DNA of 64,000 nt from positions 286,130,001-286,194,000 of the forward strand of contig OZ024742.1 in NCBI GenBank assembly GCA_964016885.1, read 5' to 3'. Within the stretch, counting starts at the first letter, position 1, and each line of letters begins with the position of its first letter. Under the pieces are notes generated by a model that did not search any database, had not been told where the DNA came from, and saw only the letters and a list, made by a program, of their open reading frames with translations. Shown piece after piece: positions 6,109-56,271 of the stretch. Source of the DNA: Eledone cirrhosa. Taxonomy: Eukaryota. A program made the position numbers and the translations under genes.

Positions 6109-6779
6109 TTTATATATATATATATAATTCAAGCATCATACATAGTCTATATATGTTGTGATACCTTAAATTAGTATATATATATCCGTCTCTTTCTCTC
6201 TCTCTTTCTCTCTATCGCGGCTTTATTAGCTAGCTTAAAAGACAGAGTAGGCACGCCAATCACATCTAACACAAGCAAAGCAGGCAAGAAAACAAAAAAA
6301 CAAAACCCCCCGCAAAAAAAACTTACAAATAAAAACAGCAACAACAAACAAAAACCCACAACAAAACAACGACGAAAAACAATACTAATAGTAATTGTTT
6401 TCCATTTACATTAATTATTAGATTAGTAAGATTGACATAAGGTCACAAATTGGTATGAGACGGATATCCTTGGATTAAACTCAGAACGTGTCAGACATTT
6501 TAATCTAGGTACTTTGTAGCGGTGAGAAGATGAAAGTCGCTGTGTTTTGTAAACTGACAAATTATAACAGGACGAGGATAAATAAAAATATAGACATAAA
6601 ATGAAAAAAATACACCAAGGATGCTTACCATGACGTTCATTATATATATAGTACTATTACAGGAGGCCGACGAGCTTGTAATAAGGGTCCATATTCAGCC
6701 GTAATAAAATGAATATATATATATATATATATATAAAAATATACATATATGTGTGTGTGTCTGTGTGTGTGTGTGTGTA

Positions 6780-6900
6780 TACCACAGCAGAGGTCCGACG
6801 AGCTTTTGACTCCAGAGTCGGGCCGTATTGATCAGCCGCGAAACGCGCGTCACGCCTAGATAAATGTAATGAATATTTAATATTTCGTCCTTTATAATAT
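6780..6900 (+). mobile_element. HHR-like PLE terminal fragment in CA/TA microsatellite
   Basis: CCGACGAG...GCGAAAC GCGC GTC, a degenerate CUGANGA core with palindromic stem III; shorter relative at 6650-6712. Confidence 0.55.
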
Positions 6901-6916
6901 TATATATATATATATA

Positions 6917-7380
6917 CATCGAGCCCTCTTCGGATTTTAGTCTTCGTAATTATTAATACAATATATATATATAGTAATAATAATTACGAAGACGAAAATC
7001 CGAAGAGGGCTCGATGTATATATATATATATCGAGAGAGAGAGAGGGAGAGATAGAGAGGGAGAGAGAGAGAGAGAGGGGGCGAGAGAGAGAGAGAGAGA
7101 GAGAGAGAGAGAGAGAGAGAGAGAGAATGAGAGATAGATAGAGAGAGAGAGAGAGAGAGAGAGAGAGAGAGAGAGAGAGAGAGAGAGAGAGACGGAGAGA
7201 GAGAGAGTTATAATCATATATAAACCCGTAAAGCAAATATTAATTATTAATACAGATTAAAGTTTAAGCAAAGAATTTCTACTTCCACCCTATTACGGGA
7301 TCTTCTGAAATAGTTTCAGTAGATCCCATAATAGGGTAAAAGCAGAAATTCTTTGTTTAAACTTTAATCTGTATTAATAC
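6917..7380. mobile_element. Fold-back insertion of the CAGAAGA-hammerhead family plus an extra tail copy
   Basis: Inverted arms 7246-7310/7314-7379; tail (CATCGAGCCCTCTTCGGATTTT) in both orientations at 6917-6955 and 6973-7016; homologous to 33325-33490. Confidence 0.85.
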
Positions 7381-7524
7381 TTATATATATATATATATAT
7401 ATATATATATATATATATATATATATATATATATATATATATATATACACATATTGTTATACTTCGGGAGGGTCATGGTGCCAAATTCAAATTAAAATTA
7501 AAAACGAAGTATATATATATATAT

Positions 7525-7878
7525 TTCGTTTCTGAATTTGTTTAGCAAGATTCTTTATCTGAAAACGTGTGTTGAAACTGATATTGTTATGCTTTAGGAG
7601 GGTCATGTTGCCAATAAGAAACACACGCACCAGCTGCTTTCACTCCAATTTATTATAGATTAAATTTATAAATTTAAGAATTTATAAATTTCCGGTTGGT
7701 TGGTTGGTTCCATAACCGGACGGTTGTTCATATATTGTCAAAGTTCTTTCGTCACACATTCTGTGACCTCTTCAGTAATTGGGGATTCTTTTCTTTGCTT
7801 TGTGCCTCTCCTTTGTTCTGTCCTACGCCATCTTGTTTTTGTATGTGTTGTGTGCTTAGTTTGCGCATGTGTTACATC
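7525..7878 (-). mobile_element. Penelope pseudo-LTR (family A) with hammerhead
   Basis: Near-identical to 8974-9270 and to the reverse complement of 48745-49055; HHR at 7737-7779 on minus strand. Confidence 0.85.
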
Positions 7879-8899
7879 GAACTACGACGAGTCCACGCCA
7901 CGACTTTAGCTTTTAACAAACGCACGCAATTGCCGTCGCAGGTCGATGAACAAACAGAAGCACAATTTAGTATAGCTAGATCTAAACTTAGAAGTGTTAT
8001 AGAACAGTATAGCAAGAAGCATAATAGAATGGAGTCCCAGTAACTGGGAGAAAAATCTTTAAATGGCTTGCGTAAGCTCATGCAGCGCTCGCGTAATGGA
8101 GAGATTGCATGCTTTCCAACAGACAAGTCTGGCAGAATGTGGGTTGACAGTCTGTCAAACTACATCCAGGCAATGCAACCCCACATCACTAACACAAGAG
8201 AAGTAACACCACAAGAGCATGAAGATAGGGAGAAAACCCTCAATGCCCATATGATGATGTGGACAAACATAATGCAGCCCAATAAAAGGACTGCCAACAA
8301 CTTCCAGGCCTGGAACAATGACGTGCCAGCGTTGTATGGGCTTCGAAAAGACCATAAGACGAGCAGTGACCCTGTCGCAGGACCACCAACACCGCCAGTC
8401 TGTGGAGCTAACATTGCTAGTAACTACAGACTTTCATACTTCCTCTCCCTGATCATACGCCCCATCATTGAAATGTCCCCAGATATATGTGACAGCACGG
8501 TGGACCTCCTCAGCAGAATCAGCGAAAATAACCGATCTAGGGACCTAACAGACTGTATAATAGGTAGTATGGATGTTGTGTCCCTAGATCCATCCATTGA
8601 CGTGGATTTTGCTGTGAAGAAATGCGTAGAAATGATCAGTGAGAGCAATGTTGAATTCCGTGGGATTGATACCAGTGAGCTGGGACTCCTACTTAAACTT
8701 ATCTATAGTAATGATTATCTAGCTACATATGACCGTAGCAACCAATGCCCTACAAGACCAGCAAGAGGCAGACCACCTACCATTACCTCAATGGCCAAGA
8801 AAACCCACACAGATAGATGGAACGTGTGGACCAGAGCCATACGGACTCCCGAAAACCACGATGAACTAAAGAAAATGATTGCACATGCGGTGGGGCCAT
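7879..8899 (+). pseudogene. Penelope-like reverse transcriptase fragment (N-terminal half), ends at (TA)n
   Basis: ORF 8068 motifs FPTDKSGR, LYGLRKDHK, PVCGA, GSMDVVSLDPSI match PLE RT; no YxDD; ORF reads on into TA repeat. Confidence 0.85.
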
Positions 8900-53623: not shown

Positions 53624-53660
53624 CCCTCTGAAGAAGAGATATTATCTCGAAAATTAAGGA
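53624..53660 (+). ncRNA. Minimal hammerhead ribozyme (family L)
   Basis: CCT CTGAAGA A GAGAT att ATCTC GAA AA TT A AGG; palindromic AATT stem III; AATAAA follows and a tail runs to (TA)n at 53821. Confidence 0.78.
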
Positions 53661-54290
53661 CATTTAAATAAATCTAAGGTAAAAGACTAATTGTCAACAA
53701 TATCTTTTGCATTTGCATTCTTTATTCTATGTCCATACCTGCATTGTTTTGGCTTTATTATACATATACAAACGTTTATACCTCATTACACAATGCTTCA
53801 AGTGAACTATAACTTCCTCCTATATATATATATATATATATATATATATATATATATATATATATATACAGATTACGAAAGTATGCGAAATTATTTTTTC
53901 AGCGACTCAATGAGATAATAAGCGTGCGGTTGTGAAACTGCATCCTAAGGTTCAGAGAGCACACATTATAGTAAAGATACCTCACGTATCCAACATATAT
54001 ATATATATATATATATATATATATATATATGTGAATATAGACATAGAATATTCGAAAATATTCTGTATGTTTATAATAAACATTTTGAAGACCTAATCGC
54101 TATAGAATAGAATACGTCACGTATTACAATTAGATTCTCGATAAAAGCAAGGGAAGTAATCTACGCGTTTCATTCTTGTTAGAAATCTTCAGGACTACAT
54201 GTCTATATTCACATATATATCGCTATTTCAGAGCATTTATTCCAATATATATATATATATATATATATATTGTTTATATATATATATATA

Positions 54291-54622
54291 AACATAAGAA
54301 GTGTGGTAAGGAACCAAGTGGACCATAACGCACCAGAGTACTGGATACTTAGGATAGTAGAGTGGGTAATAAGAAAAGAGTCAGGACCCCGACGGCTGAT
54401 CTCCGGCCGTTTCGACTCTTTTCCTATATATATATATATATATATATAACGAAGGAAATGCGGTAAGGAACCAGATGGACCATAACGCACCAAAGTACTA
54501 AATGCTTAGGGTAGTAGAGTGGGTAATAGGAACGAGTAGGACTCCGACGGCTGAGCTCAAGCCGTTTCGACGGCTAATTCTGAAACGGCTTGAGCTCAGC
54601 CGTCGGGGTCCTACTCGTTCCT
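54291..54622. mobile_element. Two family C termini separated by (TA)n; the second is a fold-back
   Basis: 54291-54424 (-); 54448-54622 with inverted arms 54527-54568/54581-54622. Confidence 0.85.
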
Positions 54623-54697
54623 ATATATATATATATATATATATATATATATATATATATATATATATATATATATATATATATATATATATATATA

Positions 54698-55594
54698 TTA
54701 AAATAACAGATTAAAGTTTAAGCAAAGAATCGCTGCTTTCACCCTTAACGGGATCTTCTGAAACTAACAAAGTCAATCTGTAAACGCAGAAGTGGATATT
54801 TCAAAAAACGTTGCAACCGGAGGAAGACAGGAAGACGATACTTTGGTTCGTGGAAACGTTCCTTGGCAAAGAACGGGAAAAAACGAATATTATACGTCAT
54901 TAATAGGAGCGGTGAAAAACAATTACGCGCAAAGACAGATCCACGTTTATGGTATAAAAGAAGTCGTAGACTAATGTTCTCTAAGTGGTTCATAGAGACG
55001 TTCTCTGGCAATGAACGGAAAAAACGAAGATAATACGTCATATGTGGACCGTGGAGAACAATTGCACGCAAAGACAAAACCCCGTAAATGGTATAGCTGA
55101 AGTCGTAGACTAAAATTCTAACTAGGAAACCGAATGAATCTCCGCTTCAGAGTTAAGAATAAAGTAAATAAAATACAATACAGAGGTAATAGAAATTAAA
55201 TAAATACATACACGCATGTAAATACGTACATACACAAGCATACGCGAAAACACTTGCCATAGGTATACAAAACCACGCACATATAAATATGTGTGTGTGT
55301 GTGTGCGTGTATACAAATAAATAAATAATTAAATAAACGTATATAAATAAATAAATACGTATATAACAAGCGCACACACATACCTACATGTAAAGACGTA
55401 AGTCAACCAAAACATGAAGTACACATATACACACACCCTACATACGTACGAACCTGCATACTCACACAGACGCAAAACTCCCGTATACACATAACCATAT
55501 GTACCAGAATATATAAAAAATTATACGCCAAAACATATACAATCAAATATACGTACGAGAAAGTATACGTACCTTCACAAAACATACAGGTAAC
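54698..55594 (-). mobile_element. Family J element, single tail-less arm
   Basis: Aligns by eye with 32059-32960. Confidence 0.9.
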
Positions 55595-56271
55595 GCGAAG
55601 AAATACCTATGATTCCTAGTAGACACCTGACGATGGATACTCCTCTTTTTTACCCGTAACTTTTATTTTTCATTATACTTAATTGCAACCACACACTCGC
55701 CATTTTCATATAAGCTTCCTTCTTCGCTGTGACCCGTCTCTTTTCTCTCCCCTTGCTGCTATACTCTCTCTCTCTCTCCCTTCTCTCTCCTTCTCCCTCT
55801 TACTTTCGCTCACCCCCTCGGCTAGTCACCTTCTCTCGCCTAGCCTCCCACTATAACTATCTCTTTCTAGCTTCCTCTTACTTTCACTCACTCCCTCTCT
55901 GCTAGTCATTCTCTCTCCTCCAGCTCACTTCCTCCCTCGTTCGCCACTGTAAGCAGTCTCTTCTCTCGCTAACACTGCTACAGCTAAGACGTGTCTTTTT
56001 TCTCTCTCGTCAAAATTTGCCAGTTCTTACGTTCGAAATGAGTTGTTGACTTGATATTTTTCCTACTTTTCCTCTCTTTACGTTGCTTCACCCTTCGTGT
56101 CTGTTTACATGTCCTCCTCCCCCTTCTTTTATCCCAATAACTTATTTTAGTTATTGTTCGCCCTAGGCTGAGGTATCTTGTCTCTAAAGCGAAGAAATAC
56201 CAATGATTCATAGTAGACAACTGACGATAGATACTCCTCTCTTTCGCCCGTAACTTTTATTTTTCATTATA
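55595..56271 (+). mobile_element. Non-coding element with 83-bp terminal direct repeats containing a degenerate HHR-like core
   Basis: 55595-55677 and 56189-56271; CTGACGA...CCCGTAAC; CT-rich interior; ends at TA. Confidence 0.7.

Follow-up and report, generated by a model that had tools for sequence, protein, structure and literature searches.

The question raised by this locus is why hammerhead-type ribozyme motifs recur so densely beside TA microsatellites, and what kind of element placed them there. In the stretch of DNA analysed here as a whole (the window; 64,000 nt of Eledone cirrhosa, GCA_964016885.1, contig OZ024742.1, 286,130,001-286,194,000 of the forward strand), about twenty motifs belonging to at least 10 repeat families lie a short distance inside ends that terminate on TA microsatellites.

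Hammerhead motifs and their cores

With the exact core defined as the boxes CUGANGA, GAAA and UH in type I order with three stems, the structural descriptor scan of the window finds 15 complete type I hammerhead motifs in 10 families, which bears out the at least 13 recognisable cores in 64 kb and the about ten hammerhead families that an earlier sequence-only reading of this DNA had claimed. At a score of at least 7, the 15 exact-core motifs compare with a mean of 0.15 and a maximum of 1 in 100 block-wise dinucleotide shuffles, where the wide descriptor used was broadened post hoc with the window data already known; the narrow original descriptor gives 9 motifs versus 0.34 in shuffles. A further 6 motifs, 1 of them doubtful, have an altered core position 4. 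The U at this position is absent in families G, I and P, with A4 in family G (3 copies and 2 fold-back arms) and C4 in families I and P, U4C being an already known, tolerated hammerhead variant. A search with covariance models had been suggested together with the structural one and, in contrast to the latter, it gives nothing: the Rfam hammerhead models have no match in the window at gathering score, are absent among the 150 matches listed of 242 at E 10, and return nothing in 4 short stretches searched separately. The Rfam scans also give two tRNA-like matches in the window.

Among the 13 sites that had been listed as cores with pairing stems, 12 are complete exact-core type I motifs, with core starts at 7775-, 9166-, 12466+, 14129+, 16839+, 18098+, 19493-, 25048+, 29643+, 29920-, 48813+ and 53628+ (the positions listed earlier mark stem I or the cut site, not the core start). 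The 13th, at 33345+, reads CAGAAGA, that is, it has all three stems and a U4A core. Weak ones among the 12 are 29643 (stem I of 2 bp), 16839 (stem II of 2-3 bp) and 29920 (internal mismatch). That 16839 is an incomplete motif was considered and dropped, a 4-bp stem III with an 8-nt loop closing the motif. From the 7 sites that had been called degenerate, 6795 turns out to be complete with U4C, and 55627 and 56221 find no support: CTGACGA is present there but with neither a GAAA box nor stems, the constrained fold energy is positive, and by-eye inspection finds no fit to type II or III. The rest are at most partial motifs, with 19220 holding the 3' half only, 26741 being a doubtful candidate with a broken 5' core, and 31040 and 44862 being two copies of one family whose core defect differs between the copies. 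Overlooked before were 54192-, 48411+, 33790- (U4C), 32121- and 54760- (U4A) and 16832-, as well as five 3' halves belonging to family L and 56574-, which is doubtful. The corresponding features, apart from those of family A, are as follows.

6793-6901, + strand: family I, U4C core 6795
7245-7379, unstranded: family G variant fold-back, A4 in both arms, GAAA box damaged in both
12400-12567, + strand: family B unit with core 12466, a long stem I with bulges and a stem III that is AT-palindromic
13541-13735, unstranded: family L, GAAA box and long stem III without 5' core; further copies at 24851-24987, 45903-45951, 54292-54424 and 54449-54621
14032-14226, + strand: family H fold-back with core 14129, stem I of 11 bp, stem II closed by an A-G mismatch
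16704-16892, unstranded: family Q fold-back, cores 16839(+) and 16832(-), short stem II closed by U-U
18030-18188, + strand: family B unit, core 18098
19156-19310, unstranded: family K fold-back, 3' half of the motif only
19380-19563, - strand: family B unit, TA on both sides, core 19493
25013-25200, + strand: family C with core 25048, stem II closed by an A-A mismatch
29641-29761, + strand: family D 3' end with a minimal hammerhead (core 29643), terminus on TA
29807-29990, - strand: family E 3' end with a minimal hammerhead (core 29920)
32060-33406, unstranded: family G head-to-head pair, U4A cores 32121(-) and 33345(+)
33562-33830, - strand: family P 3' end, U4C core 33790
44788-44905, + strand: family J degenerate motif; second copy at 31004-31082, - strand
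48344-48588, + strand: family N, core 48411, stem II long and branched
53625-53820, + strand: family F, minimal hammerhead core 53628
54030-54215, - strand: family O, core 54192, U-U closing stem II
54699-55593, - strand: family G long copy, U4A core 54760, terminus on TA

In all listed cases the constrained hammerhead fold is less stable than the free one, with the rows for 7775, 6795, 44852, 31079 and 19216 excluded because the automatic fold took the wrong register. Putative self-cleavage would, in the minimal forms, probably depend on dimers or on help from a protein. The three copies of family B keep the outer stem I with differing letters, and in family E the majority letter at 29910 restores a stem II pair; in family G no two-sided covariation is found among 4 distinct sequences. 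It is noted that a family with a conserved U4A core, here family G, may be new. The U-U closure of stem II was also considered as a novelty and dropped, as it is present in the Hydra table (PMC8557442), in PMC3088659 and in an axolotl family.

Coding remnants of Penelope-like elements

Two links to coding sequence of Penelope-like elements (PLEs) had been named, one for family D at 29640 and one for family A at 30040-30960, and both hold. Altogether, three families are collinear with Neptune- or Hydra-type PLE coding remnants, and for 11 of the 14 families no coding sequence is attached within the window. The features are as follows.

7525-7878, - strand: family A 3' end, tailed, with a minimal hammerhead whose core starts at 7775 and whose predicted cut is at 7741; inverted copy that adjoins the reverse-transcriptase (RT) remnant
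7882-8904, + strand: family A-type PLE RT remnant, broken off at a TA tract, 66% to octopus protein P0001
8976-9282, - strand: family A 3' end, hammerhead core 9166, with its short terminus on TA
25302-25786, - strand: Hydra-type PLE RT/thumb remnant, broken off at a TA tract (by-eye motifs against the Hydra proteins of the PMC8557442 supplement)
26923-28181, + strand: family D coding remnant, RT and C-terminal GIY-YIG, frameshifted, with internal deletion, Neptune-like
30046-30945, - strand: family A copy with broken Cys linker and endonuclease (GIY-YIG), lacking the hammerhead segment
31348-31584, unstranded: family A head-to-head ends without hammerhead, one tailed, one short
35096-35398, - strand: C-terminal endonuclease remnant of Hydra type, lying 1.3 kb upstream of, and on the same strand as, the family P hammerhead
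48659-49053, unstranded: family A head-to-head pair, core 48813(+), with a short end and a 60-nt tailed end, both on TA
51333-51752, + strand: Hydra-type endonuclease remnant without recognisable downstream hammerhead

Because the hammerhead segment is absent in 30046-30945, the coding link of family A rests on common flanking sequence; P0001 matches the endonuclease remnant at 30610-30933 as well, with 67%. Full-length relatives of families A and D have the PLE-type RT and the GIY-YIG endonuclease in one frame. Like Neptune-type PLEs, family A has the CX2-5CxxC linker and a C-terminal endonuclease, but it differs by a DKS motif, and the words typical of it do not occur in the published alignments; for these two reasons it is not placed in a clade. 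Its RT is not recognised by Pfam, which in the window finds only the RT of family D, with a weak match. The family D remnant resembles the Neptune1_Ap row, the motifs being compared by eye, and its relatives span RT to endonuclease, with the CX2-5CxxC linker pattern in 59 of 120.

Hydra-type remnants occur at three places in the window, one of them collinear with motif 33790, so arranged that family P is likely linked to a Hydra-type endonuclease. The clade is marked by DKT and CxCX5C motifs, a C-terminal endonuclease lacking CCHH and a (TA)n target. Relatives of the remnants show the motifs, with CxCX5C in 41 of 150 mostly partial proteins, the window remnants themselves being compared by eye. 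For the remnant at 25.3 kb a word-based search gives no match and the full HMMER search does; a Naiad assignment was dropped, its motifs sorting with Hydra in the published alignments. No full-length copy, in which direct-repeat pLTRs would surround a full frame, is present in the window, and none of six words taken from the window sequence occurs in the published consensus files.

Termini, TA tracts and the origin of the repeat ends

In all 21 motifs (15 exact and 6 with position-4 variants), the predicted cut is followed 16-218 nt downstream by a (TA)5+ tract. It had been stated that nearly all hammerheads end directly on (TA)n, which is true of the element ends but not of the ribozymes, given these distances. 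The proposed comparison with background shows enrichment: with a limit of 250 nt on the 3' side, set post hoc with the distances already known, 21 of 21 motifs have such a tract versus 0.36 of background positions. Counted per family, 14 of 14 have a 3' TA tract (binomial p 6e-7), and on the 5' side a TA tract is found for 10 of 21 motifs. CA/TG tracts accompany 5 of 21 motifs (background 0.12) and GA/TC tracts 2 of 21 (background 0.06), that is, the TA excess is without comparable excess for CA or GA tracts. Note also that TA adjacency is not peculiar to the hammerhead families: SINE 3' ends lie on long TA tracts in 2 of 6 cases and the other 4 start with TA. A tRNA-bearing family and a Tc1/mariner copy likewise sit in TA.

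The termini themselves are regular. Families A, G and L have a fixed two-terminus pattern, the two termini of family A being 60 nt apart, and 7 of 8 family A ends lie on TA or at most 7 nt from it, versus 1.1% of random positions. The same holds for 4 of 4 ends in family L and 3 of 5 in family G, the remaining 2 being tailed. The window holds 17 head-to-head pairs, and in 15 of them one arm ends 0-14 nt from TA and the other arm runs on, giving the one-sided tail that is PLE-like; the tails of the multi-copy families in the window are about 25-85 nt long. This regularity of the tail asymmetry may be new. In public contigs and reads, sequences heap on the motifs of families D and E and thin upstream, the summed depths not being taken as copy numbers.

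Based on these data, we consider it very probable that the motifs are type I hammerheads just inside TA-stopping repeat ends, likely the 3' ends of many 5'-truncated PLEs, of which the GIY-YIG endonuclease would cut (TA)n. The protein of the element would cut both strands of the TA tract, reverse transcription would be primed from two start sites close to the RNA's 3' end, and copying would mostly halt after 100-400 nt, so that the stretch holding the hammerhead is what would remain; two copies would often be joined head to head, with one longer, tailed end and one end without tail. Of this, the motifs, their placement relative to TA, the two fixed termini and the coding links of families A and D are observed, and we infer the PLE origin of the families that are without coding sequence, the target choice and the priming.

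It is possible, if improbable, that some families, B above all, are instead non-autonomous retrozyme-type monomers that derive from small circular RNAs and use the proteins of PLEs. Family B has three copies of 165-185 nt, with roughly common 5' and 3' limits and unrelated upstream sequence, its long stem I is like the classical type I form, and published units are about 170-400 nt, with monomers common. However, no tandem array of period at least 40 overlaps a motif in the window, and therefore two consecutive units, by which retrozymes are defined in print, are not found; moreover, the common 5' limits could reflect copying stalled at one structure. The TA-targeting PLE/retrozyme community proposed earlier is thus retained as diverse TA-associated PLE families with type I hammerheads, and its retrozyme part is not.

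We regard it as quite unlikely that the TA tracts were not landing pads but grew later out of the elements' AT-rich 3' ends, or were introduced at insertion. Such an origin would agree with the enrichment being strongest on the 3' side (21 of 21 versus 10 of 21), with many termini being AT-rich themselves and with SINE ends also starting TA runs. Yet the short and the tailed termini of one family both finish on TA, families that are unrelated lie one after another on the same tracts, and a published PLE protein favours AT-rich targets in vitro (PMC11167929). That the motifs arose by chance in DNA rich in AT and palindromes, or belong to the arms of MITE-like DNA transposons, as the lack of an Rfam match, the tuning of the descriptor on the data and the likeness of many fold-backs to terminal inverted repeats might suggest, is highly implausible and largely refuted by both comparisons with shuffles, the narrow first descriptor included, and the arms are asymmetric and tailed and common to copies with PLE coding sequence.

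Relation to known systems

These repeats, read as the likely ends of 5'-truncated PLEs, follow a pattern that has been described before. TA targeting (octopus families included), minimal hammerheads, a stem II closed by U-U and numerous families within one genome have all been reported, and the novelty implied by the sequence-only reading was overstated because every component is already in print. As far as the excerpted text of Cervera and De la Pena (2014; PMC4209133) goes, the minimal hammerheads of metazoan PLEs are type I with one extra base after A9 and G10.1-C11.1, have a short palindromic stem III, and occur in many families per genome, mostly as single motifs from truncated elements. 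All this is likewise found here, and the pattern suits families A, D, E and F; several window families differ in having a longer stem III, and TA tracts are not treated in that excerpt.

Among Hydra clade PLEs (Craig et al. 2021, PMC8557442), almost every family listed prefers (TA)n, an Octopus bimaculoides family included. The clade also shows tails, an inverted truncated copy at the 5' end, and a hammerhead near the 3' end in which stem II is often closed by U-U and stem III often has 3-4 bp. These features suit families O, Q, G and P and the three coding remnants. By contrast, none of the hammerheads listed there has A or C at position 4, unlike the window variants, and the window families differ from the published consensus sequences. 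Non-LTR retrozymes (PMC7229834; bioRxiv 10.64898/2026.07.22.740005) are short, non-coding and AT-rich with a type I hammerhead, and family B is of similar size; unlike them, the window is without tandem units and its ends show the PLE head-to-head and tail pattern. The Anolis Poseidon protein in vitro (PMC11167929) prefers an AT-rich target and cuts and extends both strands, and two start sites define the tail; it belongs to another clade, with a tail of 30-40 bp versus about 25-85 nt in the window multi-copy families.

A joint reading goes further and is speculative, being rather unlikely to hold as a whole: family G would be a working natural A4 hammerhead across two subfamilies, octopus TA tracts would be among the densest animal ribozyme collections, and the strict pairs of one tailed and one short end would be the in vivo footprint of one Penelope protein complex that primes both strands from two different start sites.

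Finally, the locus is a dense local example of known biology, where the ribozymes of Penelope-like ends escape Rfam, and many small palindromes labelled unknown or MITE-like in such genomes are readable as Penelope-like ends. If family G cleaves, a natural core variant would be added. If the tail asymmetry holds genome-wide, it would provide extensive natural data on how Penelope elements insert, a mechanism that is not yet settled.

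Hammerhead motifs and their core variants

The core sequence CTGANGA occurs 40 times in the window versus 20.5 times in block-wise dinucleotide shuffles. With a narrow type I descriptor, 9 complete motifs were found versus 0.34 in shuffles, and with a descriptor tolerating a mismatch at the stem II base, 12 versus 0.12. The final descriptor, which was broadened only once the data had been seen, gives 15 exact-core motifs in 10 families versus 0.15 in shuffles, together with variants at core position 4 (C in 2, A in 3 and, doubtfully, G in 1, versus 0.04-0.05 per class in shuffles). 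It is noted that the Rfam hammerhead models gave no match at the gathering score, nor in four short stretches, and that none is present among the best 150 of 242 matches at E 10. In each of the constrained folds listed, the free fold is more stable than the hammerhead form; this is expected of minimal motifs, yet gives no support.

The sequence-only reading had proposed 13 main and 7 degenerate hammerhead sites. Twelve of the 13 main sites fall in the exact-core set of the final descriptor, while the remaining one (33345, plus strand, family G) keeps the motif and loses the exact core, having A in place of U at position 4 (U4A). Among the degenerate sites, one is complete with C at position 4, three are partial, 26741 has a broken 5' core and two fail. 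Sites 55627 and 56221 are ruled out as hammerheads, the sequence CTGACGA being present and the hammerhead stems absent. A short repeat with CTGACGA and without hammerhead stems is located at 55591-55677 and 56185-56271, where it ends in a T-rich stretch followed by a short TA run, and a look-alike lies near 19610-19665. The hammerhead feature is real and the reading's broad interpretation is correct. Its retrozyme label was not borne out, the tandem test having failed within the window; family B is still a candidate retrozyme monomer. Directly upstream of the family B unit at 18030 lies one copy of a 250-bp repeat pair with a tRNA-like look (15955-16212 and 17772-18018, 71% alike), and directly behind a family B unit lies a Tc1/mariner-type transposase remnant (DDE_3, 12599-13497) with a TA tract on each side.

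U-U closure and U4C are on record in the excerpted text of PMC3088659, and a table in PMC8557442 includes hammerheads of Hydra elements whose stem II is closed by U-U. A search of literature listings and of the text of the papers named here found no natural U4A, which does not amount to showing that none is published. In family G the A4 core may be new, and may equally be a dead motif, the family having spread without it.

TA tracts and the anatomy of the insertions

The DNA is repeat-rich, with 108 perfect (TA)5+ runs in the window. Such a run follows the predicted cut at a distance of 16-218 nt in 21 of 21 motifs versus a background of 0.36, the latter taken from positions in 5-57 kb after removal of simple repeats and of three long blocks of coding or repeat sequence; by family, downstream TA is present in 14/14 (p 6e-7). 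On the 5' side (TA)5+ lies within 250 nt of 10/21 motifs, and other tracts are near fewer (CA/TG 5/21, GA/TC 2/21). An earlier test with 12 motifs gave 12/12 when 4 or 5 units were required of a TA tract and 11/12 when 6 were required. Termini stop on TA in 7/8 cases for family A, 4/4 for family L and 3/5 for family G, versus 1.1% of random positions. Because the 3' ends of SINEs adjoin TA too (two of six on long TA tracts, the other four starting with TA), the TA link is not limited to ribozyme families.

In 15 of the 17 self-complementary pairs examined, one arm comes to an end at 0-14 nt from TA while its partner continues, with part of this asymmetry built in since the arm limits were drawn from the self-match; two pairs are symmetric. 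What carries weight is that the shorter arm ends on TA and that the sequence of the extension belongs to the family: a shared 60 nt in three copies of family A, the same ~80 nt in four copies of family L, and ~25 nt in two copies of family G. In one family G pair the extension enters a GA tract instead of TA. The five family L copies (13541-13735, 24851-24987, 45903-45951, 54292-54424 and 54449-54621) all stop upstream of the GAAA box, at a distance of at most ~25 nt, and all lack the 5' core, ending as if stem II stalls copying.

Other repeats are also present. A TA-flanked head-to-head family without hammerhead carries a tRNA-like gene (16957-17661, 19786-19921, 49069-49418 and 50430-50603), in which ARAGORN finds Thr at 17041-17113 (minus) and Ser at 17452-17524 (plus). 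Further TA-bounded fold-backs are at 49985-50357 and 6917-7016 (98% and 94% self-complementary, respectively), the former having its 3' end style and palindromic stem III half in common with family N. Satellites occupy 57944-62561 (50 bp, 92 copies, 97% identity) and the window start, 1-2750 (37-40 bp), and the window may be richer in repeats than is usual.

Coding remnants and public reads

Both coding links to Penelope-like elements (PLEs) that had been claimed, for families A and D, hold. P0001 matches the reverse transcriptase (RT) remnant 7882-8904 (plus) at 66% and the endonuclease remnant 30610-30933 (minus) at 67%, and before the RT remnant stands a family A end in inverted orientation, the same arrangement as in the published PLE layout. 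In family D a broken RT-endonuclease frame precedes the hammerhead motif by 1.45 kb, and the motifs of this frame match, by eye, the Neptune1_Ap row. Among named relatives of window proteins, the nearest comes from Octopus vulgaris (72% identity), which makes an octopus-type genome likely. An octopus protein annotated as dynein regulatory complex subunit 6-like (P0023) holds a piece 77% identical to the RT of family A, which probably reflects a gene-model artefact or exonisation of a fragment. Three further remnants are as follows.

25302-25786, Hydra-type remnant
35096-35398, Hydra-type remnant
51333-51752, Hydra-type remnant

The second is on the same strand as the 33790 motif (family P) and 1.3 kb upstream of it, with no TA tract between, and from this position it likely belongs with that motif. 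The remaining 11 families have no attached coding sequence in the window. A LINE at 35422-43800, in two copies 79% alike with RT and zf-RVT, one having a zinc-knuckle frame upstream, begins with its first copy right at the border of the endonuclease remnant of Hydra type.

Two contig sets from a single sample and two read sets of reduced representation were mapped over 29530-31082, with about 19,000 contigs mapped per run; the depths are not copy numbers. Depth is highest on the motifs of families D and E and several-fold lower upstream, as is predicted by 5' truncation; sequence divergence may add to this drop. At 29910 the majority letter brings back the stem II pair of family E (among the 40 of 327 differences listed), and loose ends past the family A terminus give a mixed tail plus TA consensus, with agreement 0.56-0.73.

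Proposed origin of the hammerhead ends

The TA-bound hammerhead ends are known biology, while the families themselves are new; the regular tail asymmetry of the pairs may be new. In its excerpted text, PMC8557442 reports (TA)n preference of Naiad and Hydra families, octopus ones included, ties it to the Neptune linker, and describes inverted truncated copies and tails. More than 6000 motifs in 16 families are reported for a coral (PMC7229834), and 31 recently active PLE families for O. vulgaris in PMC13282606, whose passages covered here lack the word 'ribozyme'. No octopus hammerhead census was found in literature listings or in the text of the papers named here, which does not show that none is in print.

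According to PMC11167929, PLE proteins cut both strands of AT-rich DNA, copying starts at two tail-defining sites, and insertion in vitro did not need hammerhead cleavage. We infer that here double-strand cutting and two-site priming would occur within TA tracts, with early stops giving short ends that carry a hammerhead, and head-to-head pairs with one tail. Going by PMC4209133 and the review PMC6765202, minimal hammerheads would probably cleave weakly, as dimers or aided by proteins. If the PLE process in TA tracts leaves the hammerhead ends in this way, the ribozyme would be a passenger marking the 3' end rather than a targeting device.
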